From Myxococcota bacterium (GTDB taxonomy: Bacteria > Myxococcota > Kuafuiibacteriia > Kuafuiibacteriales > Kuafuiibacteriaceae): a stretch of DNA of 64,000 nt. Both the position numbers and the translations under genes were made by a program. The DNA lies in assembly GCA_039024635.1 (NCBI GenBank), contig JBCCQA010000021.1, positions 16,942 to 80,941 of the forward strand. The letters are read 5' to 3'. Shown here piece after piece: positions 7,478 through 62,608 of this stretch. The notes beneath the pieces were generated by a model. The model was not told where the DNA came from. It ran no database searches and saw only the letters and a program-made list of their open reading frames with translations. Positions within the stretch are counted from its first letter, which is position 1; every line of letters starts with the position of its first letter.

Positions 7478-7502
7478 GTCTGGGCGGGCGACCGGGTGAC
7501 AA

Positions 7503-13848: not shown

Positions 13849-15285
13849 ATGGGTCATCATCGGCTGCGGGCCATCCCTCCGGACGTCAAGACACGCTTCG
13901 AAGGTAGCTCGCCTTGGCGAAAATACCCCTTCATCTTCTGGGGCGTTGGGGTCGTCTGTCTGATGGCTGCCTTTGCCTTTGGCCAGGGCGGCGCCGAGGA
14001 GCACGCCTCCATCGGCTTTGAATCTGTCGCCCTGGCCGACCATCACGACGACGGCGAAGCCCATGGCCACGAAGCCCATCACGGCGGCGACGCGCATGAC
14101 GGCGACAAGGCCCATCACGACCACGATGGCCACGGGGCGAAGGGAGCGCACGGGAGCGGTGGCGGTCATGGAGACGAAGACCACGGCGACGATGGAGGCC
14201 ACGGCCACCATCATGGTGAGCTGACCCGCTTTTCATTTAGCTACCTTACGGCGTTCATGTACGGACTGAGCCTGGCCCTCGGAGGCCTGTTCTTCGTACT
14301 TGTTCAGTTCCTCGCGCGTGCCGGATGGAGCGTAGTCGTGCGCCGCATCGCCGAGAACGTCATGGCCACGCTCCCACTCTTCGGCTTGCTCTTCATTCCT
14401 GTGTACCTAGGGCTGTCGAGTACCCACTTCCACTGGTGGCACTTCGAAGGGCACGACCCCCTGCTCGACCACAAGGCGCCCTACCTGGATGAGAACTTCT
14501 TTATCCTCCGAGCCATCTTCTACATTGTAGTCTGGGTCGGCCTTGCCTTCTTCTTCTGGCGAAACTCGACCGCTCAGGACAACTCCGGTGAGCATGACCT
14601 GACCCGACGCATGCAGAACCTATCCCCGCTCGGGATGATCCTCTTCGCCCTCACGACGACCTTTGCTGCCGTGGATTGGATGAAGTCCATGGACCCGCAC
14701 TGGTTCTCTACGATGTTCGGGGTCTACTACTTCGCGGGTTGCGTCGTGGGTATCTTTGCCACTTTGTCCGTATTGACCATCTGGTTGCAGTCCTCGGGCT
14801 ACGTCAAAACGATCATCAACGCTGAGCACTACCACGACATCGGTAAGCTCCTGTTCGGCTTCGTGGTCTTCTGGACCTACATCACGTTCAGCCAGTATTT
14901 CCTGATTTGGTACGCCAACATTCCAGAGGAGACGCTCTGGTACTACCACCGCACGACTCATGGGTGGGAGAACGTGGGTGTGGCCATCATGATCGGCCAC
15001 TTCTTCATTCCGTTCTTCTTCCTGTTGCCCCGCGGCATCAAGCGGAACCCGAAGACCTTGATCCTTGGCGCCCTTTGGCTACTCGGCATTCACTACCTGG
15101 ACCTCTACTACGTCGTGATGCCCATTCTGGACGAGAGCCCCCACTTCACCATCGTGGACCCTTTGTGCCTGGTTGGCATCGTGTGTTTGTTTTTGGGCAC
15201 GTTCGCATTCGTGGCCGGTCGGTCGGATCTCGTTCCGGTCAAGGACCCAAGGCTTCCGGAGTCACTAGCCTTCCAGAACCTCTGA
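13849..15285 (+). CDS. actF: Alternative complex III subunit ActF (second NrfD-like membrane subunit), carrying an unusual ~60-aa His/Asp/Gly-rich insert near the N-terminus
   Basis: 478 aa polytopic membrane protein paralogous to ActC. Residues ~65-125 read ADHHDDGEAHGHEAHHGGDAHDGDKAHHDHDGHGAKGAHGSGGGHGDEDHGDDGGHGHHHGE. Confidence 0.75.
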   Translation: MGHHRLRAIPPDVKTRFEGSSPWRKYPFIFWGVGVVCLMAAFAFGQGGAEEHASIGFESVALADHHDDGEAHGHEAHHGGDAHDGDKAHHDHDGHGAKGAHGSGGGHGDEDHGDDGGHGHHHGELTRFSFSYLTAFMYGLSLALGGLFFVLVQFLARAGWSVVVRRIAENVMATLPLFGLLFIPVYLGLSSTHFHWWHFEGHDPLLDHKAPYLDENFFILRAIFYIVVWVGLAFFFWRNSTAQDNSGEHDLTRRMQNLSPLGMILFALTTTFAAVDWMKSMDPHWFSTMFGVYYFAGCVVGIFATLSVLTIWLQSSGYVKTIINAEHYHDIGKLLFGFVVFWTYITFSQYFLIWYANIPEETLWYYHRTTHGWENVGVAIMIGHFFIPFFFLLPRGIKRNPKTLILGALWLLGIHYLDLYYVVMPILDESPHFTIVDPLCLVGIVCLFLGTFAFVAGRSDLVPVKDPRLPESLAFQNL

Positions 15286-15350: not shown

Positions 15351-15917
15351 ATGAAGTTTTCGCCCCCACAAACTCTCGCCCTGGTCTCGCTCGCCGCCCT
15401 AGCGGCGTGCGGCATTCCGGACGTGAGCCTGTTTCCCATCGACCCTTGGCCGGAGAAGGACGCCTACCTGGAGAACCAAAAAACGGCGTTGACCGGTTAC
15501 GACAGGGTCGAGGAGACGAAGAAGTACCGCATTCCTGTGAAGGATGCCTTGGCCATGGTGGCCAAGGATGCGGATGGCCTGAAGCCTCTGGTGAGGCTCA
15601 AGACCGACTTCTCCGAGATGACCCAGGTGGAGCGTGGCGAGCGCCACTTCAATATCACCTACGCGTGTGCCGGCTGCCACGGTTTCAACGGTCAGCGTAA
15701 GGTGGGCCCGCACCTGAACAAGCGCTGGGGTGGCGAGGCTCCGCTCGAGGGTGGAACGGTCGTCGCCTTCAACGACGAGTACTTCAAAGAGTCGGTCCTG
15801 TACTCCACGAAGAAGATCGCTCGAGGCTATCCGGCTGCGATGCCCTACTTCGCCGAGCTCATGTCCGAAGAGGACTACGAAGACATCAAAGCCTACGTGA
15901 TGACCTACAACCAGTAG
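15351..15917 (+). CDS. Monohaem class I c-type cytochrome, lipoprotein (candidate periplasmic electron carrier)
   Basis: Start at internal ATG 15351 (MKFSPPQTLALVSLAALAACG lipobox). CAGCH haem motif plus distal Met (AAMPYF). The track ORF 14907..15917 upstream part overlaps actF and is read-through. Confidence 0.7.
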   Translation: MKFSPPQTLALVSLAALAACGIPDVSLFPIDPWPEKDAYLENQKTALTGYDRVEETKKYRIPVKDALAMVAKDADGLKPLVRLKTDFSEMTQVERGERHFNITYACAGCHGFNGQRKVGPHLNKRWGGEAPLEGGTVVAFNDEYFKESVLYSTKKIARGYPAAMPYFAELMSEEDYEDIKAYVMTYNQ

Positions 15918-17451: not shown

Positions 17452-17754
17452 TCAGGGCTCGGCCATGAGCTCGTCACAGTCTGCGCTGTCGCAGTCCTGA
17501 GAGCAATCGCTGCCCGTGCAGGAGTAGCGGCAGGTGGAGCCCGGTTCGCAGCTCTGGTCGCACCCGCCGCCGGAACAGGTGAAGGTGCAAAGCGCTTCCT
17601 CTTCGCAGAGCTGGAGGCAGCCCCCACCGTCGCAGGTGAAGCTGCATTCGTCTCCGATATCGCAGCGCTGTTCGCAGCTACCCTCGGTACAGTCTTCTTC
17701 GACTGTCCCGCAGCTACACAAGAGCAGTCCAAGGACGAGCGTCTTCCAGTTCAT
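17452..17754 (-). CDS. Small secreted Cys-rich repeat lipoprotein (100 aa, 22 Cys)
   Basis: Signal peptide with lipobox (LLCSCG). Repeated module C-(S/T)-F-T-C-x-G-G-G-C-x-Q-x-C appears twice, plus further CxxxC pairs. Acidic. Confidence 0.5.
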   Translation of the reverse strand: MNWKTLVLGLLLCSCGTVEEDCTEGSCEQRCDIGDECSFTCDGGGCLQLCEEEALCTFTCSGGGCDQSCEPGSTCRYSCTGSDCSQDCDSADCDELMAEP

Positions 17755-17853
17755 GTCTCGCTCCTAGCCCAGCATTGAGGTGGGTTCCAAGAGGACCGCG
17801 ATCACGCACGCGAGGGGTGTAGGGTCGTGTGTGGTCGCTCCTCTCCTTCGAGC

Positions 17854-18843
17854 CTACGCGCGTCGTCCGCCGCGTCCCCGAGGCAGCGTCCAGAAGAGGA
17901 ACTTCGCAGCTCCTACCAAACCCGCCCACTTTCCCACTACGACGGCGGCCGCCATGAGCTGAGCGTCTTCGGGCGAGCGACCCTTTTCGAGCTCCCCTTC
18001 TCTCACTTTCCGATAGAGGCGACGGTAGGCCAGCAGTGAGCTCATGCTGAGGCCCAAGGTGGGTAGGGCGGCCATGAACGCGAAGCTCGGAAGGGCCAAG
18101 CCGTACAGTCCGAGGGACGCCAACTGGCGGAGGTTCTCGGGGTCGCGATGGATCCATGCTCCTTGTGACCAGCTGTGTCCTAGTCGAACATTCCGGGTCC
18201 ACCACTGAGAGAAGGCGCTCATGTCGATGTCGTGAAACGCCATGTCGTCCGGGATGCGACGGGCCTTCCATCCCGCGCCCAGCGCGCGGCGATAGAACTC
18301 CTTCTCTTCTCCGGCCGGCATGTCTGGATTCTGACCGCCAGCGTCTCGCCAGGTCTCGACCCGCGCCATCATGTTGCCTCCTGATTCACGGATGTCTCCG
18401 ACGGGACCGTCCCACTCCATGTCCGCTAGTCGGTGATACGCGTTCCGCTCTCGCTCCCGCTCTCGAAGCCGTCCACATACGATCCCGTAGTCTGGATGCT
18501 GGGCGAGGAAGGTCTGGCCCGCGCGTAGCCAGTCGGGCGCAGGCTCGCAGTCTCCGTCGAGAAACATGACGTACTCCACTTCGGGGTGAGAGTCGGTCAG
18601 ATGCTCGAAGCCCGTGTTTCGACCGAGGGACGGCCCAAGAGGTCGGTCAGGACGGAGACGGACCACCTCGACGGCAGGATGGCGTTCCTCGACCAAGTCG
18701 GGGCTACCGTCGTGCGAAGCGCTGTCCACGTAGACGACTGGCACCTGCTCTTTGGAAAGTGCCTCCATCCCTCGGGCGAGCTGGGATCCCTCGTTTCGAC
18801 CGATCACCACCACGCCTACTTTGGGGAGCCCGGCGTCGATCAT
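17854..18843 (-). CDS. Family 2 glycosyltransferase (GT-A fold) with C-terminal membrane segment
   Basis: VVVIGRNEGSQL...YVDSASHDGS...FLDGDCEP DxD-type motifs. 329 aa. Confidence 0.65.
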   Translation of the reverse strand: MIDAGLPKVGVVVIGRNEGSQLARGMEALSKEQVPVVYVDSASHDGSPDLVEERHPAVEVVRLRPDRPLGPSLGRNTGFEHLTDSHPEVEYVMFLDGDCEPAPDWLRAGQTFLAQHPDYGIVCGRLRERERERNAYHRLADMEWDGPVGDIRESGGNMMARVETWRDAGGQNPDMPAGEEKEFYRRALGAGWKARRIPDDMAFHDIDMSAFSQWWTRNVRLGHSWSQGAWIHRDPENLRQLASLGLYGLALPSFAFMAALPTLGLSMSSLLAYRRLYRKVREGELEKGRSPEDAQLMAAAVVVGKWAGLVGAAKFLFWTLPRGRGGRRA

Positions 18844-20596: not shown

Positions 20597-21931
20597 GTGG
20601 TGGCAGTTGGACAGCTGGGTTTGGAGCAACTGCAAAGCATCGACGAGCCCGCCATCCTGATCTCCACCGACTATCGGGTTTTGGCGGCCAACGAGGCGTA
20701 TAGGGCTCGATTCCCGGGCATGATCGAGCCCGGCGTCTCTCGATGCCACGGCGTTTCCCACGGCTACGACAACCCCTGTGACCAACACGGCGAGTCCTGT
20801 CCGCTCAAGAAGGCGGGAGTCTCCAAGCGAACCGAGCGGGTCTTCCACGTGCACCATGGACCAGAGGGTTTGGAGCACGTCGACATCAAGTTGGAGCCGG
20901 TCTTCGATGCTCGCGGCGACCTTGCCGGCTTCATCGAGGTCATCAAGCCGATAGAGATCGCCCAGGCCGAGCCTGCCAGCGGCTTCGTCGGGCGATCGAC
21001 CGCTTTCAGCGAAATGCTGGGTTTGCTGCAGCGCGGTGCATCGAGCGAGGTACCCATTCTGCTCTTGGGTGAGTCGGGTTCAGGCAAGGAGCTGGCGGCT
21101 AGGGCCGTCCACGACTCGAGCCCTCGGGCCGAAGGTCCCTTCGTCCCAGTCGAGTGCTCGGGGCTCAACGACGCTCTCTTCGAGTCGGAACTCTTCGGGC
21201 ACGTTAGAGGCGCCTTCACTGGCGCGACGGCGCCCAAGCCGGGCTTGATTGAGGCGTCGGTCGGGGGGACTCTCTTTCTGGACGAGATAGGTGACGTACC
21301 GCTGAGCATGCAGGTCAAGTTGCTGCGCCTGTTGGAGTCCGGCACCTTTCGCCGAGTGGGGGACGTAGCGCCCCAGCGGGCAGACTTCCGGCTCGTTTGC
21401 GCGACCCATCGAGACTTGGATCGGTTGGTGCAGCAGGGTGCGTTTCGCCAAGATCTCTACTTTCGAATCAACGCCTTTCCAATCCCGATGCCGAGCCTCC
21501 GAGATCGTCCGGATGACCTCGACTTGCTGAGCGCTTCCCTTCTCGAGGGCTCGGGCAAGCGTCTCTCCAGCGGAGCCTTGGCTCGCTTGAAGGCCTATCC
21601 CTTTCCGGGCAACGTACGCGAACTCCGCAATATCCTCGAGCGGGCGACGCTCCTGGCCGACGGCGAGTTCCTGTTCGAGGAGCACCTCCCCGACCACGTC
21701 CGCGGGGCCATCCATACAGAGGGCTCGGCAGAAGCAGTCGGACCGCCGCCCGGATGGCCGACCGCAATCGTGCCCTTGGAAGAGGCCATCGCCCACTACT
21801 TGCGGTGGGCCGAGGGCCAGCATCGAGGTGACCGGGTGGCCTTGGCCAAGCGTCTGGGATTAAGCGAGCGGACACTGTACCGGCGGCTTCGTTCGGCTGC
21901 CATGGCTGACGATTCTGTCAGTGATGACTGA
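20597..21931 (+). CDS. fisR: Sigma54-dependent transcriptional activator, FisR-like (Cys-containing sensory N-domain + AAA+ sigma54-interaction domain + HTH)
   Basis: GTG start. N-domain has C50-x10-C61-x6-C68 ([22 protein letters not shown]). AAA+ motifs GESGSGKE and GAFTGA. C-terminal HTH. Flanked on both sides by sigma54 promoters in front of sulfide-oxidation genes. Confidence 0.65.
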
Positions 21932-26160: not shown

Positions 26161-27651
26161 GTGGCCGAGCTAGACATCCATCCCTTCGGCGCAGTTCCGC
26201 CGCCTCTTCGCGCAGCGATGGAGCGTCGAGGCTTTAGGTCCTTGACTCCGGTCCAGCAGGCCGTGGTCCAGGAAGACATCGTCGGTCGAGACCTTCGCAT
26301 CTCGTCTCAGACCGGCTCGGGCAAGACGGTTGCGCTCGGGCTTGCCATCGCGCCCACCCTCCTCTCGGCGGAGGCTGCAGCAGGACCCAGGGTCCTGATC
26401 CTTGCCCCGACCCGGGAGCTGGCATCTCAAGTTGCCGATGAGCTCGGCGGCTTGTACGAAGAGCTTCGAGTCCAGGTGCAGGTCGTGACCGGCGGGACCG
26501 ACGCCTACCGAGAGCGTAGAAGCCTCCAGCGGGGCCCTGCCGTCCTGGTGGCGACTCCGGGACGATTGCTCGATCACCTTCGAGGCGGGGCAGTCGACTT
26601 GGCTTCGGTCGAACACGCGGTTCTGGACGAAGCTGACCAGATGCTCGACCTGGGATTTCGGGAAGAGCTGGACGCCATCTTGGAGCAGCTACCCACGGGG
26701 CGACGACTTCACATGGTCTCGGCGACCTTTGCCCGCCAGGTCCTCCGCTTCGCCGATGGATGTCAGCGAGAAGTCCTCCACTTGCAGGGTACTCGGCTCG
26801 GGGAGGCCAATACCGACATCGAGCACATCGGGCACTTGGTGCCGGCCACGGATCGACACCCGGCCTTGGTGAATCTGCTTTTGGCCGACGAGGCGAGCGG
26901 AGGGGGATCCTGGTTGGTCTTCGTCAGGACTCGAAACGACGCCACCCACCTGGCTGAGCTCTTGGTCGAGGATGGTTTTTCGGCCATGCCTTTCTCGGGC
27001 GAGCTATCCCAGCCCCAGCGAGAGCGGACCCTGAACGGCTTCAAGGCGGGGCTGGTCAAGGTCCTCGTGGCGACCGACGTTGCGGCTCGGGGCATCGACG
27101 TCCAGAACGTCTCCCGCGTGGTGCACTTCGAGCTTCCCCGGGACGTCGAGACCTTCACTCATCGCTCGGGTCGCACGGGAAGGGCCGGGCAGAAAGGGCG
27201 TTCCCTCCTCTTGGTTCCGCCCTCCCGGGAGCGAAGGGTCTGGGAGCTGGCCCGCAGGGCAAACATCGAGCTCGCCTGGCACCCTGTCCCCGACGCCAAG
27301 CGAATCGAGAAAGTTGCGATCAAGAAGACGCGGCGATCGCTCCAGAACCGACTTGCCAACGGTGAGGAGCTTTCGAGCAAGAAGATCGACTATGCGAGCA
27401 AGCTCCTGGGCGAGCATCCCCCTGAGACCCTGGTTGCGGTGCTGCTCGACATGATTCGGACGCCACTTCCGTGCGAGCCTTGGCCCATCAAGGCGATGGA
27501 GCCTCGAGGAAGCGGAGGTGCGGCCGAGCGAGCGGGCGAGGGCCGCAAACCGCGGAGCCGAGTGCGGCCTGGGCGAGGTCCAAAGCGTTTTGGTGCCCGA
27601 CCCCGAGCCGGTCGAAAAGGACCCCGCTCCGGGCGCCCCCGTCGCGGCTGA
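26161..27651 (+). CDS. DEAD-box ATP-dependent RNA helicase with Arg/Gly-rich C-terminal tail
   Basis: Motifs: GSGKT (Walker A), PTRELA, DEAD (LDEADQM), SAT, HRSGRTGRAG. Basic RG-rich C-terminus. Confidence 0.85.
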   Translation: MAELDIHPFGAVPPPLRAAMERRGFRSLTPVQQAVVQEDIVGRDLRISSQTGSGKTVALGLAIAPTLLSAEAAAGPRVLILAPTRELASQVADELGGLYEELRVQVQVVTGGTDAYRERRSLQRGPAVLVATPGRLLDHLRGGAVDLASVEHAVLDEADQMLDLGFREELDAILEQLPTGRRLHMVSATFARQVLRFADGCQREVLHLQGTRLGEANTDIEHIGHLVPATDRHPALVNLLLADEASGGGSWLVFVRTRNDATHLAELLVEDGFSAMPFSGELSQPQRERTLNGFKAGLVKVLVATDVAARGIDVQNVSRVVHFELPRDVETFTHRSGRTGRAGQKGRSLLLVPPSRERRVWELARRANIELAWHPVPDAKRIEKVAIKKTRRSLQNRLANGEELSSKKIDYASKLLGEHPPETLVAVLLDMIRTPLPCEPWPIKAMEPRGSGGAAERAGEGRKPRSRVRPGRGPKRFGARPRAGRKGPRSGRPRRG

Positions 27652-29654: not shown

Positions 29655-30626
29655 ATGTCCGAAGCCGCCCTTCAGACCCTGCTCTCCCCGGTCGTGCTCT
29701 TTTTTGCCTTGGGCTTCGTGGCGGGGCTGGTCCGATCCAGCCTGAGCGTGCCCGAAGACCTGGCCAAGGGCCTGTCGCTCTACCTCATGCTCGCGATCGG
29801 CTTCAAGGGTGGGGTCGAACTGGCCCACGCAGGCTTCGACCTGGGGATGCTCGGGGCGGTGATCTCGGGCCTGGTCGCAGGCTTTGGGCTCCCGCTCATC
29901 GCCTTCGGCCTGCTCCGCGCCATGACCCGGGTGAGCCACGTCGACGCGGCCGCCATCGCCGCCCATTATGGCTCCATCAGCGTGGTCACTTTCGTCGCCG
30001 CCTCGGACTACATCGATGCGCTGGGGGTGGAGTACGAAGGCTACATGGTGGCGGTGGTCGCTATCATGGAGTCGCCCGCCATCATCGCCGGGCTGATCCT
30101 CGCCCAGCGCGACCCTGCCGCGAAACGGGCCCCCCGATGGGACGCTGACTTCCTTCGTGAGGTCTTCCTGAACGGAAGTGTCTTCTTGCTCTTGGGGGCT
30201 TTGGTCATCGGAATGGCGACGGGAGACAAGGGCTACGACACGGTGGCGCCCTTCATTGCCACGCCCTTCAAGGGGGTCTTGTGCCTCTTCCTGCTCGACA
30301 TGGGCATTGCTGCAGCCTCTCGGCTTCGGTCCGCTTCGGGCCTCGACCATCGCCTAGTCACCTTCGGCCTGATAATGCCGGTGATCGGCGCTACGGTCGG
30401 GCTTGGGCTGTCCTGGTTGGCGGGTCTGTCCGTCGGCAGCGGGGCGCTCCTGATCACGCTATGCGCCAGCGCCTCTTATATTGCCGTGCCGGCCGCCATG
30501 CGTGTGGCCCTACCTCAGGCCAACCCTGCCTACTCCCTCACGCTGTCCCTGGGCGTGACCTTCCCCTTCAACCTCGTCATCGGCATCCCGCTCTACCAGC
30601 GGGCCGCGGAAATCATTCTCGCTTGA
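29655..30626 (+). CDS. sbtA: SbtA-like sodium-dependent bicarbonate transporter family permease (DUF897)
   Basis: 323 aa, ~10 TM. Followed 12 nt later by a PII-like gene, the diagnostic SbtA/SbtB pairing. Confidence 0.55.
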   Translation: MSEAALQTLLSPVVLFFALGFVAGLVRSSLSVPEDLAKGLSLYLMLAIGFKGGVELAHAGFDLGMLGAVISGLVAGFGLPLIAFGLLRAMTRVSHVDAAAIAAHYGSISVVTFVAASDYIDALGVEYEGYMVAVVAIMESPAIIAGLILAQRDPAAKRAPRWDADFLREVFLNGSVFLLLGALVIGMATGDKGYDTVAPFIATPFKGVLCLFLLDMGIAAASRLRSASGLDHRLVTFGLIMPVIGATVGLGLSWLAGLSVGSGALLITLCASASYIAVPAAMRVALPQANPAYSLTLSLGVTFPFNLVIGIPLYQRAAEIILA

Positions 30627-30638
30627 AAGGAATCAAAT

Positions 30639-30953
30639 ATGACGATCGAAACCCACGCTCGGAAGAGACTCGAGATGATCATCGAGCAGCCTCACCTGCC
30701 GCAATTCATCAGGCTCTTCGAGCAGCAAGACGTACGCGGCTATACGGTCTTGGACTCCAAGTCGGGAAAAGGGAGCCGAGGCTTCTGGTCCCCAGCTCGC
30801 CTCAGCAGTGTGGATGACCGGGTGATGATCGTGGCGGTCGCCGACGAAGAGACGATTCAGCGGGTCCTGAGCGAGCTTCAGGCCTTGTTCGAGCAGCTTC
30901 CGGGCGTCGCCTTCGTGTCCGACGTCCAGGTCATCCGGCCGGATCGTTTCTGA
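30639..30953 (+). CDS. sbtB: PII-like signalling protein SbtB
   Basis: 104 aa PII/GlnB-like fold (MIIEQPHLPQFIRLFEQQDVRGYTVLDSKSGKGSRG...DDRVMIVAVADEE). Immediately downstream of the sbtA-like gene. Confidence 0.55.
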   Translation: MTIETHARKRLEMIIEQPHLPQFIRLFEQQDVRGYTVLDSKSGKGSRGFWSPARLSSVDDRVMIVAVADEETIQRVLSELQALFEQLPGVAFVSDVQVIRPDRF

Positions 30954-46288: not shown

Positions 46289-47119
46289 TCAGGGGTCTTG
46301 GATGTCTACCGTATGGCAGTCCTTCACCGCTGCGGGTGGCCAGTCTGCACCCGCTTCCAGCGATACATCGACGGTCTGAATGTCGAGGGCGCCATCGGTG
46401 AACAGGCCGCAGATCGCCATCATGCCCGGCGCTGGATCGACCTTCACCAGTTCGCCGAGTTCGACGTCGGCCCGCCCGGCCTCCACGGGGAGGCTCTGGG
46501 GGCGGTCATCGAGGTCCGTGTAGGCCGGGTGGAACCAGTGGATGCGACCTTCAGCGTCCCGGCCTACGATGGCCAGAAAGCCTGGGGCCTGGGCCAGGGT
46601 GGTGAATGCAAAGGCGAAGGCCCGGTCGCTGCGGGCCGTAGCTTTGACCTGCGAAAGCTGAGCCTCGGGACCCGAAGCTTGGAAAATGGAGATCCAGGCC
46701 TGGCGCCCTTCGGCGGAGCCCGAGCGAGCCTGAACGTCGGTTTTCGGGGTCCTGACGACCATCAGCGCCACCGCGGCGGCCGTCAGCGCCCCGAAGGAGC
46801 CTGCGAGCCACCAGCCGCTTCTCCGCCGGATGGGAAGGATCTTGGCATCCGCCCCGCCACCGCTCTCGGTGAGGAGAGCTTTCTCTAGCCCGACGGAAGC
46901 GGGCGCCGGAGTGCCCCTGGCCAAGAGGCGATCGATCTGAGCTTGGGGCACGTCCCGACCCTCCAGCCCTCGCTCGAGCTCCACCCATCGGGCGTAGCTT
47001 CGGCGCAGCGCTTCGGAAGACTCCAACAAGGTCTGCAGCTCTTGGTCCTCCTCGGGGGACAAAGTGCCCTCCTCGAACTGGCGCTGGAGCAGCTCTTCAC
47101 CACGATTCACGGCAACCAT
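46289..47119 (-). CDS. Anti-sigma factor (single-pass membrane, periplasmic C-domain)
   Basis: Start at internal Met MVAVNRGEELLQRQ, overlapping the sigma-factor stop. One TM helix (WWLAGSFGALTAAAVALMVV). Confidence 0.5.
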   Translation of the reverse strand: MVAVNRGEELLQRQFEEGTLSPEEDQELQTLLESSEALRRSYARWVELERGLEGRDVPQAQIDRLLARGTPAPASVGLEKALLTESGGGADAKILPIRRRSGWWLAGSFGALTAAAVALMVVRTPKTDVQARSGSAEGRQAWISIFQASGPEAQLSQVKATARSDRAFAFAFTTLAQAPGFLAIVGRDAEGRIHWFHPAYTDLDDRPQSLPVEAGRADVELGELVKVDPAPGMMAICGLFTDGALDIQTVDVSLEAGADWPPAAVKDCHTVDIQDP

Positions 47120-47685
47120 CCCTTCTCGCGAAAGAACACCGTCGCCCGTTTGCGGAGGCTGACGAGGCTTCGATAGACCTGATCCCGAGACAGCCCCAAG
47201 CGCTCTCCCATCGCTGCTTGAGAGCGGAGTTCTTCCGTCCCTAGGCACTCCAAAAGCGCCTTCTCCCTCTCAGGCAGGCCCTCCCGGAAGCTCCGCATCA
47301 AGTCCTTGAGCTCCAGGTCCTCGACCGAGCTCGGGGGTAGGTTCGCGGGTTCGGGGCCTTGGTCCAAGGGGACCTCTCGAGCCCTACGACCCGCTCGACG
47401 TAGGGCGAGATTGGTGGCGATGCGCCGAAGGTACGGGGTTGGCGGTCGACCGCGCTCGAAGTTTCCATTCTCGACCTGGTGAAAGAAGGCAGCGAAGGTC
47501 TCCTGGGTCAGATCCTCGGCTTCGGTCGGGTCCGACACACGGTGAAAGCCCAGCTTGCCGTCCCGTGCCTGCACCCGAAAGCCTCGCGTGAGCACCGCCA
47601 GCACGTAGGGGAGGTGGCTTCGATAAAAGCCGTCCCGATCGTCGATGTCGACGTCCGCTCGAGACTCCTTTTCCCCATCGGCCAG
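47107..47685 (-). CDS. ECF-type RNA polymerase sigma-70 factor
   Basis: Region 2 (FYRSHLPYVLAVLTRGF...DLTQETF) and region 4 (LPEREKALLECLGTEELRSQAAMGERLGLSRDQVYRSL). The N-terminal 156 codons of track ORF 47107..48153 are Arg/Pro-rich non-coding read-through. True start is probably a non-ATG codon near 47685. Confidence 0.65.
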   Translation of the reverse strand: MADGEKESRADVDIDDRDGFYRSHLPYVLAVLTRGFRVQARDGKLGFHRVSDPTEAEDLTQETFAAFFHQVENGNFERGRPPTPYLRRIATNLALRRAGRRAREVPLDQGPEPANLPPSSVEDLELKDLMRSFREGLPEREKALLECLGTEELRSQAAMGERLGLSRDQVYRSLVSLRKRATVFFREKGWLP

Positions 47686-47846
47686 GGCTGCGCGCTCGGA
47701 GCTCCCCACCTGGACCGAAGCTAGAGAAGAAGGGGAGCCGAGGGCAACTCCCGAGCTGGGCGCTCGAGGTCCCCTGTGGTGCCCGGGGCTGAGGGACGCC
47801 GTCCTCACGTTGTCAGGGGCCTGTTGGCATCGTAGCTCAGCCAAAG

Positions 47847-49334
47847 ATGAGTTCGAGATGGGGGACCCTGGCCGTCTGCCTCGCCACAGGGGCGGGGGCC
47901 GTCCCAGCTGCGGCCGAGTCGGTCTCTGCCCCCGCCGAGGCCAAGGCAGCCCCTGGTCGGACCCGCCTGGCGATCGTGGTCGGCCATAACGGCAGCCAGA
48001 CCCCTGGTCGAGCCGAGCTCCGCTTTGCCGACGACGACGCGGCTCGCTACTTCGAACTCCTCGCTCCGGCCATGGATCGGGCTTGGCTGCTGACGGGCTT
48101 CGATGACCTGAGCCAAGAAGTATTCGCAGAGCTGGTCCCCATCGCGCGGACACCGACCCGTATCGCTTTGGAGGCCGTTCTGCTGGAGGCCGAAGTCGTT
48201 CTGAAGGCGGCCCGCGAACGCGGAGACCGCACCGAGCTGATATTCGTGTACGCCGGTCACGGCGACGTCTCGGACGGGATGGGCTTCGTCAATCTAGAAG
48301 AGGGCCGCCTGACCCGGGTCGATTTCGAGGACCTTGTCCTGGACGGTCTGCCGACGGACCGAAAGCACGTCATCATCGACGCCTGTCGCTCCTACTTCCT
48401 CGTGTCCTCCCGAGGGCCCGGCGGGACTCGGCAAGTTGCGCCCCAGTCCTACGCCGGCCCTCGTCGTCGGGCCGGCGTGGGCTTCGTCCTCTCGACGTCG
48501 AGCGACGCTGAATCCCATGAGTGGGCCTCTTTTCAAGGTGGCGTGTTCTCCCATGAGATCCGTTCGGCCCTGAGCGGAGGTGCAGACCTCGACCTCGATG
48601 GAGCGGTCGACTACCAAGAGCTCGCCGCCTTCGTCGCGGTGGCCAACGAAGGCATTCCTCAAGCTCGCTATCGGCCGCGCTTCTTCATCCAACCTCCGAG
48701 CGAAGACAAGGCGGTGCCGGTTTTTGCGCCCGCCGACACCGGCGTGCGATGGTTGGAGCTTCCCGAGAGAGTCGAGGGACGGGTTCGGGTGACCGATCAT
48801 CGCGGCGTGCCGTACGCCGACCTCAACAAGGCTGCAGGCGACGTGCTGCGTATCGCCCTCGTCGGCGTGGGGGATCATACGGTGGCTTGGGGAGATCGCC
48901 GTTGGCGGATGGACGGCGCCCTTCCTCGGGCGGAGCTGACCAGTCTGCCCGAGGCGCCGGGGGAGGTCGCTGCTCGGACGCAGCCCCACGAGGCCTTTCG
49001 ACACCTATTCTCGACGCCGATGAGTGCCGAGGTCCTCCGAGGTTGGCGCCTGGGTGCCCGACTGACGAAGTCGGCCCCGGAGCCGCCGCCGCGCAGGCTG
49101 CGTTGGCTCCCCCCAACCATGGTGGGCATGGGGCTCGCGCTTGCCGGAGGGGGAGCAGCCATGCTGGTGGCCGGGGCCCAGAGTCGGTCCGACTTGGCCG
49201 ACTCGAGTCTGTCTCAAGCGGACCTGGCCTCCAGGGCCGACGAGGGCGACACCCTGGTGGCGGCCGGAATCGTCACCGCGGCAACGGGCCTCGTCCTGGG
49301 GACGATCGGCGGTCTGATCTGGAAGCGCTACTAG
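47847..49334 (+). CDS. Secreted, C-terminally membrane-anchored caspase-like peptidase (C14 family)
   Basis: Signal peptide. His/Cys dyad contexts YAGHGDV and IIDACRS. Two C-terminal TM helices. Divergent from the ECF sigma/anti-sigma pair. Confidence 0.6.
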   Translation: MSSRWGTLAVCLATGAGAVPAAAESVSAPAEAKAAPGRTRLAIVVGHNGSQTPGRAELRFADDDAARYFELLAPAMDRAWLLTGFDDLSQEVFAELVPIARTPTRIALEAVLLEAEVVLKAARERGDRTELIFVYAGHGDVSDGMGFVNLEEGRLTRVDFEDLVLDGLPTDRKHVIIDACRSYFLVSSRGPGGTRQVAPQSYAGPRRRAGVGFVLSTSSDAESHEWASFQGGVFSHEIRSALSGGADLDLDGAVDYQELAAFVAVANEGIPQARYRPRFFIQPPSEDKAVPVFAPADTGVRWLELPERVEGRVRVTDHRGVPYADLNKAAGDVLRIALVGVGDHTVAWGDRRWRMDGALPRAELTSLPEAPGEVAARTQPHEAFRHLFSTPMSAEVLRGWRLGARLTKSAPEPPPRRLRWLPPTMVGMGLALAGGGAAMLVAGAQSRSDLADSSLSQADLASRADEGDTLVAAGIVTAATGLVLGTIGGLIWKRY

Positions 49335-50647: not shown

Positions 50648-51654
50648 GGACTGACTTGAAGAAGAGAATCTTGATTACCGGCACCGGAGGGCCAGCTGGC
50701 ATCGGAGCCTTGCGCGCACTAGCCGATTCCGGCCACGAGCTCGTGGCTGCCGACATGAGCGAGATGGCATCGGGACTGTTTCTCGTGCCGAGAGAACGGA
50801 GAGTGCTCCTCCGCCCTGGGGCTCATCCTCAGTTCGTTCCTCAACTGATGCTTGCTTGCGCCGAGCTGGGCATCGACACGGTGCTTCCAACTGTTGATGC
50901 GGAGCTTCTACCTTTGGCGGAAGCGAGCAGAGATCTTCGGAGCCGAGGCATCGAGCTTGTGGCGCCCGGAACGAAGGCCCTTCGGACCTGTTTAGACAAG
51001 TTCCAGCTGTTCGTTCTGGCCTGCGGCCACGTTCCTTGTCCGAGGACTGCTCTATTCGGAAGGTCCTTCGATCCAAACGGTTGGCGCTTCCCGCTCATCG
51101 TCAAGCCGCGTCGAGGAAGTGGAAGCAGAGGTGTCATTCAAGTTCAGTCGGAGAGAGAGCTTCGCCAGCTCGAAAGGTCGCCGGACCTCATCGTCCAACA
51201 GTTTCTACCGGGCATGGAGTACTCTGTCGACGTCCTGGCCCAAGGCAACGGGGAAATGCTCGTCGCTGTCCCCAGGAGTCGTCTTGCGACGGACAGCGGT
51301 GTATCAGTTTGTAGTCAGACGCACTTTGATCCAGAGCTCATCGAGCTAGCACGCCGGGCCTGCGAGATCGTAGGTCTTCGCTTCGTTGCCAACGTTCAGT
51401 TTAAGCGAGACGCGTCTGGTCGGCCCAAGCTGATGGAGATCAATCCTCGCATTCCCGGGACGATCGGGCTGACGGTAGCGGCGGGAACGAACCTGCCCGC
51501 GCTGTCCTTGGACGTCTTGGATGGGCACGTCATTCCCAAGGAGGCACTGAAGTTCCGAGAATTGGCGGTGGTTCGGATGCTCACGGAGGTCTTTGTCGAC
51601 CCCTTAGAGTTCCAGCAGTGTACTCGGCCTGAGCCCCTACAGGCTTCAGCGTAG
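50644..51654 (+). CDS. ATP-grasp family ligase
   Basis: ATGA coupling to the deacetylase gene. ATP-grasp fold signatures (PLIVKPRRGSGSRGV...EINPRIPG). Confidence 0.6.
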   Translation: MRTDLKKRILITGTGGPAGIGALRALADSGHELVAADMSEMASGLFLVPRERRVLLRPGAHPQFVPQLMLACAELGIDTVLPTVDAELLPLAEASRDLRSRGIELVAPGTKALRTCLDKFQLFVLACGHVPCPRTALFGRSFDPNGWRFPLIVKPRRGSGSRGVIQVQSERELRQLERSPDLIVQQFLPGMEYSVDVLAQGNGEMLVAVPRSRLATDSGVSVCSQTHFDPELIELARRACEIVGLRFVANVQFKRDASGRPKLMEINPRIPGTIGLTVAAGTNLPALSLDVLDGHVIPKEALKFRELAVVRMLTEVFVDPLEFQQCTRPEPLQASA

Positions 51655-53040
51655 TCCGTACTTCTTGAGCTTCCGGTAAAGAGTGGTCCGGCCGATACCA
51701 AGCAGCCGGACGACTTCCGAGATGTTCCCTCCCGTGTCTTCCATGGCGTTGACAATGGCCTGCCTCTCGAGCGCTTCCATACGGCTCTCGCCTCGTTCCG
51801 GGGTCACACCAGTCGCGGAAACGGAGTCGATCGTCGACTGGCCCGAATCTGCGCCCATGGCCTGGGCCACGTCGGCGGGCAAGTCTTCAAGGCGAATGAG
51901 GTCTCCTGTGGCCATCACCGACGCTCGCTGGATTGCATTCTGCAGCTCGCGGACGTTCCCCGGCCACTCGTACTCGGCGAGAGCCCGTAGAGCTGCGTCT
52001 GAGATTCGCTTGGGTGCCTCTGTCGTGAAGTCTCGCACGAATCTTTCTGCTAGCAGCGGGATGTCGCTCGATCGATCTCTGAGAGGAGGTACCTCGACTT
52101 GGAAGACGGCCAGACGATAGTAGAGGTCGGCCCGGAAACGACCTTCCTCCACCATCTCTCGAAGGTCACGGTGACTAGCGGACAAGAGGCGGAAATCGGA
52201 CCGGATGGTCCTGGTACCACCCACTCGGCTGAACTCTCGCTCTTGCAGAACTCGGAGGAGCTTTGCTTGCAGCCCGGGGCTGAGCTCTGCAACCTCGTCC
52301 AGGAAGAGGGTCCCGCCGTGGGCTGCCTCGAAGCGTCCGATGCGACGGTCGATCGCGCCCGTGAAAGCGCCCTTCTCGTGGCCGAAGAGCTCACTCTCCT
52401 GCAAAGTCTCGGGTACAGCAGCACAGTTCAGAGCGACGAAGCTGCCTTCGCTTCGAGGGCTTCGTAGGTGAATGGAGCGGGCGACCAGTTCCTTGCCCGA
52501 TCCACTCTCTCCCCGGATCAAGACAGTGATGTTCTTCCCGGCGACCCTATCCAGCTGGCGAAGCAGCATCCTCATGGTTTGGGCCTCGCCAAGAAGATCA
52601 AGGCCACGGTCTGTCCTCTCCAGTTGGCCGACCCTCTCCCGCAGGCGCCGCTTTTCGATAGCTCGACTCAGTACGAGCTCGAGGCGCGGAAAGTCGAGAG
52701 GCTTGGTCAAGTAGTCGTAGGCCCCGAGCTGGATGGCCTCGACGATGGAACCAGTGCCATCATCGACCGAAACGAAGACAATCGGAACATCGGGGAAGCG
52801 TCTTCGGAGCTGTGGCATGGCCTCCGGCCCCGTCTGATTCGGCATGATACGGTCCAGGAAGATCACGTCGAAGTCAGACCGATCGCTAGCTGCCAACAGC
52901 TCTGTGATATCTTCGAAGGACTCAACTTCGTGGCTTCGCTGCTCCAACCAACGACTCAAGACTATGGTGTGAGATCGGTCATCGTCGACGATCGCCACCG
53001 AAGCCGGTGCTCCTGACATGTTGGCCACGGTTTCACTCAT
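51646..53040 (-). CDS. Sigma54-dependent response regulator (NtrC family: receiver + AAA+ + HTH)
   Basis: Receiver (VAIVDDD...FDVIFLD). GESGSGKE Walker A and GAFTGA sigma54-contact motif. C-terminal HTH. Alternative start MSGAPAS at 53019. Confidence 0.8.
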   Translation of the reverse strand: MSETVANMSGAPASVAIVDDDRSHTIVLSRWLEQRSHEVESFEDITELLAASDRSDFDVIFLDRIMPNQTGPEAMPQLRRRFPDVPIVFVSVDDGTGSIVEAIQLGAYDYLTKPLDFPRLELVLSRAIEKRRLRERVGQLERTDRGLDLLGEAQTMRMLLRQLDRVAGKNITVLIRGESGSGKELVARSIHLRSPRSEGSFVALNCAAVPETLQESELFGHEKGAFTGAIDRRIGRFEAAHGGTLFLDEVAELSPGLQAKLLRVLQEREFSRVGGTRTIRSDFRLLSASHRDLREMVEEGRFRADLYYRLAVFQVEVPPLRDRSSDIPLLAERFVRDFTTEAPKRISDAALRALAEYEWPGNVRELQNAIQRASVMATGDLIRLEDLPADVAQAMGADSGQSTIDSVSATGVTPERGESRMEALERQAIVNAMEDTGGNISEVVRLLGIGRTTLYRKLKKYGLR

Positions 53041-59092: not shown

Positions 59093-62074
59093 TCAGCAGC
59101 GACGGCGTCGGAGACACAGGGCGAGCAGCCCCAGCAGCAGTCCAATGACCGTGGGCTGGTCTGTCGAGCTGCAATTGAAACCCGCGTCGGCCTCCTGGAT
59201 GAAGAACTCAGGATCCTCGACGGTCTCTTGGTCAAAGCGAAGCTCGCTCACTTCGAGAATCTCGGCATCCTTCGAGTAGACCGTCAGCAGGTCGGCCTGC
59301 TCCAGTCCTCGAAGAACTCCAGAGAGTCGAAGCTCTCCGTCCCAGGCAGAGACGGTCCGACACCGTCGTCGACCGCTTTCCGTGTCCTCCAGACAAACCT
59401 CGCTCGGAGCACTGGACTCCAGGTGAAGCCCGAGGTGTCCGTAGGCGCCGAGTTGGACGGGTCGAACGAAGTGGCGCGCAACCCCAAGTGGACCCTCATC
59501 AGGTCGGTCCGCTCGGCCGCAACCGGCGAAAGCCAAGGAGGCATCGACGGAGACGCCCTCGAAGAGGCAGCGTTCTGTCGAGAACCGGGATGCGTCGTCG
59601 GTCCAAAGTCCCTGGTCGTAGGGCGCCCACCAGCCATCGGATAGCCACAGGCGGTCCAGGCGCTGGTCGCCCGCCCAAAGCTCGAGCGTAGCTTCTTTCA
59701 TGAATCCCTCGAACACCTGCAGCTGGTCGGTTCCCTCCGAGATTCGGAGCCATCTGCGCTCGGTTCCGTCGCCTTGGGGCGCCTTCGTTTCGAGCAAGAC
59801 CCGGAGCTCGGGAGTAGCCCCACGCCGGGCCAAGGTTGCTTGGAGCGTCTGGCCCCAGGCTCCGCCCCTCCTGAAATAGGCCCCTGGGAGTGGACTTGTG
59901 GGCGGCAAACGGACGACGGGATTGGGCACTTCCTCGTCCACCAATCGGGGCTCTGCAGGGGCCACGGTGTTCATGAGCTGACCGACCAGGCTGTTCGCGG
60001 TGTGGTCTTCTCGGGCCCAGATTTGAACGTTGAGGACGTTCTGACCTTCCTCCACGAGCGGGTAGTCCTCGCTGAGCCAACGGGAATGGACGGACCAGTC
60101 TTCGCCTTCTTGATAGAGCTTGAAGAGTCGGGCTTGGTCCAGGCCGCCGGAACCTCGGAAGAGGCCGCCCACGATCTCGACGTCGTCGTGCCATCGGCTG
60201 TTGAGCTGAATGAGCTCGGCTCCGTGCGCGCGGTCGCACAGTGGCTTGGAATGCTCGTAGACTGCCCCCACGGTTTCGATGAGGAGAATCGAAGCCTGGC
60301 GCAGACCGTTCTTGCCGAGGAAGTCCAGTCCGACAACGTCAAGCGCGTTCGTGATACTTGGCAGATCGGACGGCGTGACCTCGACGGTCTCGAGGTCTTC
60401 CAGAGCCAAGGAGTCGACCAAGGAAGAAAGGGAAGAGCTGGCCTTCAGTCTCTGAAAGAAGGGCGTCATATGACCCCTTCTGATGGCCCTCGTGGCCATC
60501 TGAGTGGCTCGTCCTCCGTTCGATTCCAGACCACCGACACCGCTGGAGGACACGCCGAGCGCGTATTGGGCGCCATCCAGAACGCCGTTTCCATCCGTGT
60601 CGGCGTCGTCGGGGTCCGTCCCGTAGTAGCAGGATTCCTCGAAGTTGCTGAGACCGTCTCCATCGTCGTCATCGGCCCCGTTGGTGGCGACGACTTCAAT
60701 CGTGGTCGAGGTCGACGTTTCGAGGAAGGTGTAGGTGTCCAGCAAGGAGAGGTTCCCCTTTCCAGAGGAGTTGAAGTTACCCCAGCTCCGGGCGTTCACA
60801 TTGGCTGTCGCAGCCGTTCCGTAGGGCGCGGACAGAATCCCGCTCGCCCCCGATGTTTCCAGTCCTTTGACGCCATTCGGCATGCTCTGAGCTCGGCTCT
60901 GAACGGCGGAGTCGTTCCAGTACATCTCGAGTGGAACTCGTGTTCCGGAGGCTTCGACTTCGTACAGCATGAAACCGGGGTAGCTCGTCTCGATATCGGT
61001 CCCGACATAGTGAAACTCGCCCACGTTGACGCGAACTCGACAGTCGTAGGCGCCCTCTGCGATCGGTGTTCCTTGGTGAATTGCGTTCCAATTGATCGTG
61101 TTCAGACCGATGCTGGTCCGTCCCATGAGCAGAAGGTCGTCGTTGTTCGTGGATTCGAAGACTCCGTCGTCGTCCAGGTCGCACTGAAGGTGGAAGGTGC
61201 CTTCCGCATTCGTATTGAACTGAAACAGGCCGAAGGACACTCCTGGAACGACCTGGTTGCAGGGCGAGATGGTGCTCCCAAGTACTGATTCACTGACGCC
61301 ACCAATGTACTCGAGACCGTACACGCCGGGGGCCGTCCGGCCGTAGCCCGCGACACTCGGAGGCTGCAGGTAGATGGGAAACTCCGGAAAGACCTGATTC
61401 CCGTACTGAGCAACAGAGCGTCCGCCCTGCAGGAGAGGGCCGACGCGGTTCGCATTGATGTTGTAGACGTAGCCGGACAGGCCCTGAAGAGCGAGCTCGA
61501 TGACAGCATCGGTCCCGGTTGCTCCTCCAGGGAGCACGGCATAGAAAGAGCCTTGGGTGGCTCGGGCTTGGGCAAAGGAACCCGCGTTGAAGGCCCAATC
61601 CTGGCTGAACAGTCGCCCTCCGCCATCGATGGGGTTGAGGACAGAGACATCCCAGCGGGAGCCCGGAATCTGGAAGGAGTTGACGAGGACGCCGTAGGCT
61701 CCGTTCGGCTCGTTCGCTAAGGGGATGGATGCTCCAGAGGATAGGTTCGAGAGACCGGAACCGTCGGGACGGGTGATGCTGACGTTTCCCCTTCCTGTCC
61801 ACTGAATCGACTCAACGGAGCTATCGAGGATGTCCACATAGAGTTGGGTGCCAGATCGCAAGGCTTGATAGGTGTTGAGTTGATCGGTGCCTTCCGCCCG
61901 CGCGTGGTTGCTCAGCAGAAGGGCAGCAAACACATTCAGGCATCGAAGGCGTGAGCGGTCTCGTCTCATGACGAGGGCCTCTGCAGCTCCTATTCCAACT
62001 TGCATTGCGACGTGGACACTCACCGCCCGGCCGATTTGGGACGAGTCTGTTCCGCTCCGGTACAGCGAGGTCAT
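59093..62074 (-). CDS. Large secreted surface protein with TSP3-like Ca-binding Asp-rich repeats and a MYXO-CTERM-type C-terminal sorting tail
   Basis: GTG start. Signal peptide. DDDDGDGLSNFEESCYYGTDPDDADTDGNGVLDG repeats. C-terminus ...NCSSTDQPTVIGLLLGLLALCLRRRRC (Cys, Gly-Leu-rich TM, Arg cluster). Confidence 0.55.
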   Translation of the reverse strand: MTSLYRSGTDSSQIGRAVSVHVAMQVGIGAAEALVMRRDRSRLRCLNVFAALLLSNHARAEGTDQLNTYQALRSGTQLYVDILDSSVESIQWTGRGNVSITRPDGSGLSNLSSGASIPLANEPNGAYGVLVNSFQIPGSRWDVSVLNPIDGGGRLFSQDWAFNAGSFAQARATQGSFYAVLPGGATGTDAVIELALQGLSGYVYNINANRVGPLLQGGRSVAQYGNQVFPEFPIYLQPPSVAGYGRTAPGVYGLEYIGGVSESVLGSTISPCNQVVPGVSFGLFQFNTNAEGTFHLQCDLDDDGVFESTNNDDLLLMGRTSIGLNTINWNAIHQGTPIAEGAYDCRVRVNVGEFHYVGTDIETSYPGFMLYEVEASGTRVPLEMYWNDSAVQSRAQSMPNGVKGLETSGASGILSAPYGTAATANVNARSWGNFNSSGKGNLSLLDTYTFLETSTSTTIEVVATNGADDDDGDGLSNFEESCYYGTDPDDADTDGNGVLDGAQYALGVSSSGVGGLESNGGRATQMATRAIRRGHMTPFFQRLKASSSLSSLVDSLALEDLETVEVTPSDLPSITNALDVVGLDFLGKNGLRQASILLIETVGAVYEHSKPLCDRAHGAELIQLNSRWHDDVEIVGGLFRGSGGLDQARLFKLYQEGEDWSVHSRWLSEDYPLVEEGQNVLNVQIWAREDHTANSLVGQLMNTVAPAEPRLVDEEVPNPVVRLPPTSPLPGAYFRRGGAWGQTLQATLARRGATPELRVLLETKAPQGDGTERRWLRISEGTDQLQVFEGFMKEATLELWAGDQRLDRLWLSDGWWAPYDQGLWTDDASRFSTERCLFEGVSVDASLAFAGCGRADRPDEGPLGVARHFVRPVQLGAYGHLGLHLESSAPSEVCLEDTESGRRRCRTVSAWDGELRLSGVLRGLEQADLLTVYSKDAEILEVSELRFDQETVEDPEFFIQEADAGFNCSSTDQPTVIGLLLGLLALCLRRRRC

Positions 62075-62089: not shown

Positions 62090-62420
62090 ATTCACCGGGC
62101 GCTGGCCGACGAGGAGATGCTCGTCTCTTGGGCCAGCCAGATGGTCGAGGCTATCAGCGCTCTGTTCATCGGTCGCGGAGCAGGGCACTCGCTGGCGCTG
62201 GAAGGAGCACTCAAGCTGAAGGAGGTGAGCTACATCCATGCCGAGGGCTTTTCGGCTGCTGAGCTCAAGGATGGGCCTATTGCCCTCGTCGAGCCCTCCG
62301 TCCCGGTCGTGGCGCTGGTGCTCCCCGACGCCCCGAAGGTTGCAGCCGGCCTGGCCGAAGTTCGTGCGAGAGGCGGCAGAGTATTTCAGGTCGGTGGAGT
62401 AGCGGAGCAGGCCAAGCTCT
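62090..62420 (+). pseudogene. glmS: Fossil C-terminal fragment of glucosamine-6-phosphate synthase (GlmS SIS domain), truncated and non-functional
   Basis: [52 protein letters not shown]...VRARGG aligns with the GlmS C-terminal SIS domain ([43 protein letters not shown]...VRARGG as I remember it). No N-terminal 500 aa. The C-terminal ~70 aa is degraded. Confidence 0.6.
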
Positions 62421-62608
62421 TCAAGCGAAAGGGCGAGGCCTGGAGCTCACCTCGGCCGTACGACTCACCCTCGACTATGCCGAATCGATCTTCACCCTTG
62501 AGACGCGCTCCTCGAGTCGCTCGATGAAGATGAGGAGAAGACCCGGCGAACCCTGCGAGTGGGGGCGCTCGCCCCCGGCATGCGATCCACCCGCTGCTGG
62601 ACGAGCTC

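Follow-up and report, generated by a model that had tools for sequence, protein, structure and literature searches.

The window analysed here is a 64-kb stretch (64,000 nucleotides) of contig JBCCQA010000021.1, from the metagenome-assembled genome (MAG) GCA_039024635.1. At its left end it carries a photosynthesis gene cluster (PGC) of the purple bacterial type, followed by an operon for alternative complex III (ACIII). Near its right end lies the focal gene, a 993-aa open reading frame (ORF) for a surface protein whose C-terminus resembles the MYXO-CTERM sorting signal. A preliminary description of the sequence had taken this tail, together with several general genomic traits, as grounds for assigning the photosynthesis genes to a myxobacterium-like organism, either a phototrophic member of that lineage or a recent recipient of the genes. 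Very probably, the window is contiguous chromosome of an uncultured member of Myxococcota, probably of the class Polyangia, with a long-resident purple-type PGC, and the focal protein would be sorted in the manner of TraA of Myxococcus xanthus.

Photosynthesis and alternative complex III genes

Genes for a light-independent protochlorophyllide reductase, an LH1 antenna, a type-II reaction centre and its tetrahaem cytochrome follow one another on the forward strand and are succeeded by the six ACIII genes and a lipoprotein cytochrome c (Table 1). As annotated, pufLM, the antenna genes and the bacteriochlorophyll genes form one cluster which, with ACIII included, occupies 1–15.9 kb. PufL, PufM and PufC scored above their NCBIfam cut-offs, and ActA–F were identified by the Pfam families found on identical genes in public contigs together with gene order, in agreement with the puf/ACIII locus that had been described in the first ~16 kb. 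The Pfam content of the puf genes is LHC (twice), Photo_RC (twice) and CytoC_RC; that of bchLNB, taken from identical genes in NCBI MAG contigs, is Fer4_NifH, Oxidored_nitro (twice) and PCP_red. The bchLNB genes are 73–92% identical to bchLNB of other Myxococcota loci. The gene called as pufM begins one codon after the first ATG. The cluster extends to the left of the window, where genes have a Pfam content suggesting crtE (polyprenyl synthase) and crtF (O-methyltransferase), and in related loci an alcohol-dehydrogenase-like gene stands at the position expected for bchC.

Between bchB and pufB lies a 70-aa ORF (3695–3907, forward strand) that occupies the place of pufQ in purple bacteria. It is 81% identical in a second species (locus L093, introduced below) and 39–43% identical in loci L008, L012, L094 and L095; no family is assigned to it in the precomputed Pfam data.

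The act operon has the six-gene actABCDEF architecture of known ACIII, with the expected domain content. Homologues of ActB go by the names ‘quinol:cytochrome c oxidoreductase’ or ‘TAT-variant-translocated molybdopterin oxidoreductase’. An ACIII equivalog is lacking in NCBIfam, whose related QrcC, QrcB and DsrO models match the act proteins below cut-off. ACIII is photosynthetic in Chloroflexus and Roseiflexus, and in many bacteria it is respiratory and encoded beside a caa3 oxidase. Unlike known ACIII operons, that of the window stands immediately downstream of pufC, in a gene set for a purple-type reaction centre, and has a lipoprotein cytochrome c of its own after it. To our knowledge, the pairing of ACIII with a photosynthetic reaction centre is otherwise found only in Chloroflexota, where both the reaction centre and the electron carrier are different.

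The order bchLNB–pufBALMC–actABCDEF–cytochrome c was found in six Myxococcota lineages (the window, L012, L093, L094/L095, L096 and L097), across which ActB is at least 54% identical. The ActB homologues of L093, L094/L095, L096 and L097, at 68%, 58%, 57% and 54% identity to that of the window, are all puf-linked. At 51% identity an ActB lies away from puf, and a Myxococcota ActB at 48% adjoins SCO1 and COX1/2/3 (caa3 oxidase), the usual respiratory setting. A PufM scan of GTDB representative genomes gave 80 loci among the matches listed, with the source genome and L093 not among them; the puf–ACIII arrangement is present in one of these 80, L012, which is from Myxococcota. The searchable literature yielded no account of an ACIII linked to puf outside Chloroflexota. 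Li et al. (2023; Nat Commun 14:6450; PMC10576062), who studied phototrophic Myxococcota, mention neither ACIII nor bc1 in their main text, and their supplement gives actB as a raw annotation only.

The linkage suggests that ACIII may be what closes cyclic electron flow in this clade. Tentatively, the PGC of one phototrophic Myxococcota clade may include its own ACIII and a dedicated lipoprotein cytochrome c, with ACIII, not bc1, re-oxidizing quinol and returning electrons to the purple-type reaction centre; this is a serious possibility, somewhat short of probable. As a concrete and testable hypothesis for how cyclic electron flow is closed in uncultured phototrophs, the puf–ACIII–cytochrome c linkage is the less expected result of the analysis and the part most worth follow-up.

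The gap between pufC and actA measures 292 bp. Within it, a strong terminator-like hairpin lies 24 nt downstream of the stop codon of pufC and 235 nt upstream of actA. Because of this hairpin, puf and act may be transcribed separately or with attenuation, even though their adjacency is conserved. Between the window and L093, ActB (8423–11281 versus 10001–12937 in L093) is only 68% identical, compared with 94% for ActA, 93% for ActC and 96% for PufL.

A surface protein with a MYXO-CTERM-like tail

The focal gene product is predicted to be a secreted, all-beta, multi-domain surface protein. Its true start is probably M36, at 61969, since the homologue alignments begin near this residue in an alignment of 57 sequences. 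The segment MRRDRSRLRCLNVFAALLLSNHARA, a putative Sec signal peptide by sequence inspection, is followed by EG; the homologue consensus likewise starts at M36 and retains A-x-A-EG, and in the AlphaFold2 model the segment forms the N-terminal helix.

A search of 5.8 billion proteins yielded ~80 full-length homologues (~980 aa, 36–53% identity). The AlphaFold2 model calculated from the homologue alignment (mean predicted local distance difference test score, pLDDT, 86.7; predicted TM-score 0.77) consists of nearly all beta-sandwich domains, with an Asp-rich thrombospondin type 3 (TSP3)-like repeat in the middle of the protein. The repeat weakly matches the MtsC TSP3 region, and its residues D434, D436, D438 and D465 (numbering from M36) are invariant in the 57-sequence alignment. 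Several homologues carry PF18884, and some are called ‘thrombospondin type 3 repeat-containing’ by NCBI. In the 993-aa protein itself no domain was found by Pfam, and NCBIfam matched the tail only. Foldseek searches of the PDB returned generic FN3, CBM and macroglobulin-like folds alone, with query TM-scores of 0.05–0.12. As Foldseek and the family scans yield generic matches only, no specific biochemical or enzymatic function can be assigned to the protein.

The C-terminus of the ORF reads ...GFNCSSTDQPTVIGLLLGLLALCLRRRRC, in which VIGLLLGLLALCL is followed by RRRR. TIGR03901, the NCBIfam model of MYXO-CTERM, aligns to residues 967–992 of 993, that is, to the extreme C-terminus. It scores 17.4 bits on the whole protein (E = 0.0044) and 23.6 bits on the isolated 41-aa tail, the curated cut-off being 20, and no rival sorting-signal model outscored it on the tail. 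Cys968 (C933 from M36) is invariant among the 57 aligned homologues and one Arg of the basic cluster is >90% conserved. In most homologues the tail consists of a motif that contains Cys (as a rule G-C), a hydrophobic segment and an Arg run. In the structural model, a disordered linker (pLDDT <50) precedes the terminal helix (residues 942–955 of the model). Homologue annotations include ‘MYXO-CTERM sorting domain-containing protein [Kofleriaceae bacterium]’ at NCBI and a ‘MYXO-CTERM domain-containing protein’ at JGI. Judged from the alignment, homology of the tail is stronger evidence for MYXO-CTERM than the score of the hidden Markov model, and the tail is conserved by descent. The MYXO-CTERM pattern originally noted at this end is thus a real feature of a real ORF, with an invariant Cys and a borderline score.

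The tripartite tail of TraA and its handling by the myxosortase MrtX have been worked out experimentally in Myxococcus xanthus (Guo, Haft & Wall 2025, mBio; PMC11980579). MrtX clients, of which TraA is the prototype, share with the focal protein a C-terminal invariant-Cys motif, a membrane helix and an Arg cluster, as well as the disordered linker in front of the tail and an N-terminal signal peptide (putative here). The focal motif is F-N-C-S-S and the protein ends in RRRRC, compared with G-C-G-C in the generic MYXO-CTERM motif, and its passenger domains are unrelated to those of TraA. By analogy, we infer the same processing route as for TraA. The focal protein would be exported by Sec and then retained in the inner membrane via its C-terminal helix; it would next be lipidated on the invariant Cys and then cleaved by MrtX.

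Just upstream of the focal gene, a free-standing 136-aa ORF (62117–62527, forward strand) contains a SIS domain only. It looks like a fragment or small paralogue of a sugar-isomerase/GlmS-type protein.

Probable long residence of the cluster and identity of the host

A neighbour-joining tree was calculated from concatenated PufL and PufM (78 sequences, 574 columns, 100 bootstraps). The window falls in an eight-member clade recovered in 100 of 100 bootstraps, Myxococcota-only apart from one locus labelled otherwise (below), whose other labels are Myxococcota, Polyangia, Polyangiaceae (LLY-WYZ-14_1 of Li et al.), Sandaracinaceae and Nannocystaceae; within it, a grouping with L008, L009 and L012 appeared in 86 of 100. 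The nearest PufLM relatives among the GTDB representatives listed are ~77% identical, and with identities to the clade relatives of only this order the branch is therefore deep.

A search with ActB identified a closer locus in a second species, L093 (GCA_964477875.1). Its identity to the window is 96% for PufL, 91% for PufM, 93% for ActC, 84% for the MBL hydrolase and 58% for orf468. The right-hand junction, at which ACIII and the cytochrome c gene pass into orf468 and the MBL gene, is common to both species. Between orf468 and the MBL gene the window has two genes (17452–18843, reverse strand), one for a 100-aa Cys-rich lipoprotein with repeated C-x-x-x-C and no family match, the other for a family 2 glycosyltransferase. 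Both are absent at the matching place in L093, a small interspecies indel beside the photosynthesis region.

The contig is not chimeric at ~16 kb. From 7.45 to 27.75 kb the window is collinear, with no break, with five independent assemblies at 99.8–99.97% identity, so that the chimeric join raised in the preliminary description was not borne out. These assemblies were recovered via exact-protein look-ups and comprise GCA_039186575.1 (263-kb contig), GCA_038746945.1 (117-kb contig) and Logan assemblies of three runs; further contigs span 49–64 kb and run past the window end. The GC content is 62.5% overall, not ~67% as first stated, and ranges over 59–67% across 2-kb windows. The comparison of GC and tetranucleotide composition proposed there was also run: GC is 61.5% in 1–16 kb versus 62–63% elsewhere, and the tetranucleotide result is given below. 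Relative synonymous codon usage (RSCU) of the PGC and ACIII genes correlates with that of the rest of the window at r = 0.968, compared with 0.982 ± 0.005 for random gene partitions. GC at third codon positions (GC3) is 0.79 in the photosynthesis and ACIII genes versus 0.75 in the rest.

Four NCBI MAGs with the label ‘Myxococcota bacterium’ carry the locus, on contigs that reach 263 kb. Proteins deposited from these MAGs include exact copies of the DEAD helicase, sigma-54 activator, oxidoreductase, MBL hydrolase, ActC and ActB. The DEAD helicase, a gene that had been proposed for taxonomic placement, appears in identical form in the four MAGs under the name ‘MAG: DEAD/DEAH box helicase [Myxococcota bacterium]’. 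Among its top 120 matches, 15 are organism-named: 13 from Myxococcota taxa (Myxococcales bacterium, at up to 62% identity, Nannocystaceae, Enhygromyxa salina, Polyangiaceae and Myxococcota), one from legacy ‘Deltaproteobacteria’ and one from Acidobacteriota. For ActB, the first eight organism-named matches after the query are Myxococcota or legacy Deltaproteobacteria, and matches from other phyla appear only at ~45% identity or below. Named full-length matches of the 993-aa family come from Kofleriaceae, Nannocystaceae, Nannocystales, Polyangiaceae, Myxococcota and legacy Deltaproteobacteria, and none from the heavily sequenced Myxococcia; as the named homologue taxa include no Myxococcia, they hint at a host in the class Polyangia. 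An NCBIfam scan of ten uncharacterized window proteins found no Myxococcota-specific family. Assignment of the puf/ACIII locus to a myxobacterium-like organism is upheld by the MAG labels, the best matches and the collinear assemblies, and the case that the host belongs to Myxococcota appears strong but indirect.

Several points weigh against a Myxococcota host with a long-resident cluster and a TraA-like sorting route. Universal marker genes (rRNA or ribosomal protein) are absent from the window and from the flanks examined, and the phylum call therefore rests on MAG labels and on the best-match taxonomy of a few genes. One locus of the PufLM clade is labelled ‘uncultured Bdellovibrionales’, and the PufLM of one Myxococcota MAG (L084) lies outside the clade, grouped with Proteobacteria. 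The placement of L084 means that transfer has occurred elsewhere in the phylum and, together with the Bdellovibrionales label, that the history of the PGC in the phylum is not purely vertical. The tetranucleotide correlation with the rest of the window is 0.89 for 1–16 kb versus 0.93–0.97 for the other 16-kb blocks, and 0.8% of random gene partitions have an RSCU similarity as low or lower. Higher GC3 and membrane-protein composition could explain both deviations, which are small and as expected of conserved, membrane-rich and probably well-expressed genes. With regard to the tail, the whole-protein TIGR03901 score falls below the curated cut-off, a single MYXO-CTERM-like tail occurs within the 64-kb window, and neither the window nor its flanks, covered to at most 10 kb, yielded a myxosortase gene or CPBP-family protease. 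The curation of TIGR03901 (Haft) describes MYXO-CTERM as restricted to Myxococcota and judged singleton matches outside the phylum to be false positives. Finally, the phototrophy of the host is genomic potential deduced from gene content.

Recent lateral acquisition would mean that a myxobacterial host had newly received its PGC from a phototrophic proteobacterium. PGCs do move as units, as discussed in PMC10576062 and PMC13043013, L084 illustrates that transfers occur within Myxococcota, and the codon usage of the PGC differs slightly but measurably from the rest. Such an origin is nevertheless very unlikely, given the depth and full bootstrap recovery of the PufLM clade, the cluster and right-hand junction held in common with a second species, the high RSCU correlation at equal GC, and an adjacent ACIII of Myxococcota type that is puf-linked in six lineages. 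Because position and flank are kept across species, codon usage is host-like and the clade is phylum-specific, the PGC is read as not recently acquired. Of the two possibilities put forward earlier, the phototrophic member is therefore favoured by the PufLM clade, the L093 junction and codon usage, and recent acquisition is not.

It is highly improbable that the host comes from another phylum of the former Deltaproteobacteria or from an undescribed one, with a Cys–helix–Arg tail that is a look-alike signal and not a true MYXO-CTERM. The sub-threshold whole-protein score and the Bdellovibrionales label would fit such a host, as would the existence of other Cys-containing C-terminal signals and the known false positives among singleton matches outside Myxococcota. 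In addition, the GC content of the window lies below the 0.66–0.74 of 15 of the 32 phototrophic Myxococcota MAGs, in the part of the table of Li et al. that covers these 15. Against this stand the four MAG labels, the overwhelmingly Myxococcota affiliation of named homologues of three unrelated genes, the MYXO-CTERM annotation of the NCBI (Kofleriaceae bacterium) and JGI homologues, and the lack of a competing sorting-signal model above TIGR03901 on the tail. An assembly or binning artefact near 16 kb, in which a photosynthesis island from Proteobacteria or Gemmatimonadota was fused in silico to the backbone of a myxobacterium, and to which the tetranucleotide offset and a PufM only 70–78% identical to the GTDB-representative sequences among the matches listed (Proteobacteria included) might point, is extremely improbable and already close to refuted, given that two NCBI MAG and three Logan assemblies cross the boundary unbroken, that L093, a different species, has the same junction with orf468 and MBL genes at the identities given above, that GC and codon usage are continuous, and that ActB, on the photosynthesis side of the boundary, best-matches Myxococcota.

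A resident PGC in a Myxococcota host agrees with published work. Li et al. reported 32 Myxococcota MAGs with PGCs, from six families and three classes, together with PGC expression in metatranscriptomes and complementation of Rhodobacter mutants with myxococcotal bchYZ and crtI (PMC10576062). Candidatus Photomyxococcus marinus was described in a 2026 study, which credits a 2019 report of phototrophic Myxococcota by Cardona (PMC13043013). Phototrophic Myxococcota are thus already established at the genomic level, and the novelty of myxobacterial phototrophy implied by the preliminary description was overstated; the window adds one new lineage. As in the window, pufLM, pufBA, pufC and bch genes of the MAGs of Li et al. 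lie in one cluster of a Myxococcota-classified genome, and the window PufLM groups with theirs, including LLY-WYZ-14_1. No mention of the window species was found in the searchable literature with the run and assembly accessions. The result is a confirmation, not a discovery, and supplies one more well-assembled phototrophic lineage, with contigs of up to 263 kb from several samples. Moreover, the PGC and ordinary myxobacterial genes demonstrably form one contiguous stretch, and the common concern that phototrophy in a MAG reflects mis-binning is thereby answered.

Other genes of the window

Table 1. Positions of the annotated features in the 64-kb window.
Feature	Position	Strand	Description
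bchL	1–729	+	Light-independent protochlorophyllide reductase; truncated by window start
bchN	726–2237	+	Light-independent protochlorophyllide reductase
bchB	2228–3673	+	Light-independent protochlorophyllide reductase
pufB	4013–4228	+	LH1 antenna; LHC Pfam
pufA	4242–4439	+	LH1 antenna; LHC Pfam
pufL	4505–5329	+	Type-II reaction centre; NCBIfam equivalog, 418.7 bits, above cut-off
pufM	5337–6308	+	Type-II reaction centre; NCBIfam equivalog, 503.1 bits, above cut-off
pufC	6305–7477	+	Tetrahaem cytochrome; NCBIfam equivalog, 443.7 bits, above cut-off
Terminator-like hairpin	7501–7535	+	12-bp stem, 8 G-C pairs, T7 tail; consensus match only
actA	7770–8426	+	ACIII, multihaem (pentahaem) cytochrome
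actB	8423–11281	+	ACIII, Fe-S/molybdopterin-like
actC	11288–12682	+	ACIII, NrfD type
actD	12679–13212	+	ACIII, ActD
actE	13216–13845	+	ACIII, monohaem; Cytochrome_CBB3
actF	13849–15285	+	ACIII, NrfD-like
Lipoprotein c-type cytochrome	15351–15917	+	188 aa; cytochrome c, 3' of ACIII operon
Sigma-54-dependent activator	20597–21931	+	444 aa, PAS domain; Pfam and NCBIfam sigma-54 activator families
DEAD-box RNA helicase	26161–27651	+	Housekeeping-type gene used for placement
Putative anti-sigma factor	46289–47110	−	273 aa; downstream of and overlapping the ECF sigma gene
ECF sigma factor	47107–47709	−	Sigma70_r2; TIGR02937, 55.4 bits versus cut-off 42.9
NtrC-type response regulator/sigma-54 activator	51646–53040	−	464 aa; Response_reg, Sigma54_activat and HTH_8
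Focal gene	59093–62074	−	993-aa ORF; predicted secreted multi-domain beta-sandwich protein with MYXO-CTERM tail
MYXO-CTERM sorting signal	59096–59176	−	Residues 967–993: invariant Cys968, hydrophobic helix, RRRR
TSP3-like repeat	60578–60679	−	Asp-rich, calcium-binding type; between N- and C-terminal halves
Putative Sec signal peptide	61895–61969	−	Residues 36–60, by sequence inspection

The two sigma-54 activators of the preliminary description are present, one on each strand. Where several pairs of extracytoplasmic function (ECF) sigma and anti-sigma factors had been reported, one pair was found (46289–47709). The 273-aa partner has no family match and is a putative anti-sigma factor because of its position and a membrane segment. 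Among the ~58 genes of the window, about six clear and two possible lipoboxes were recognized. As evidence for the phylum, GC content, sigma-54 activators, the ECF pair and lipoproteins were rejected: all are common in many high-GC Gram-negative bacteria, and the GC figure was wrong. Advanced earlier as hallmarks, these regulators and lipoproteins are not specific to Myxococcota and were given no weight.

Divergent from the ECF sigma/anti-sigma pair and adjoining it is a gene for a 495-aa protein (47847–49334, forward strand) that combines a signal peptide, a caspase-like domain of the peptidase C14 type and a membrane segment at the C-terminus.

Beside the photosynthesis and ACIII genes, the segment 19593–23871 may encode a sulfide-oxidation module. 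It contains an MBL-fold protein that matches Blh in its dioxygenase half (322 bits), the divergent PAS/sigma-54 activator, a 219-aa ORF and a flavoprotein resembling type III sulfide:quinone reductase (233 bits, below cut-off). The layout presumably recalls that of FisR-regulated pdo-sqr operons.

An SbtA-type Na+-dependent bicarbonate transporter (29655–30953, forward strand; Pfam Sbt_1, E = 5e-117) is followed by the gene for a small PII-like protein. The two resemble the cyanobacterial SbtA/SbtB pair for inorganic-carbon uptake, which is of interest in a putative phototroph.

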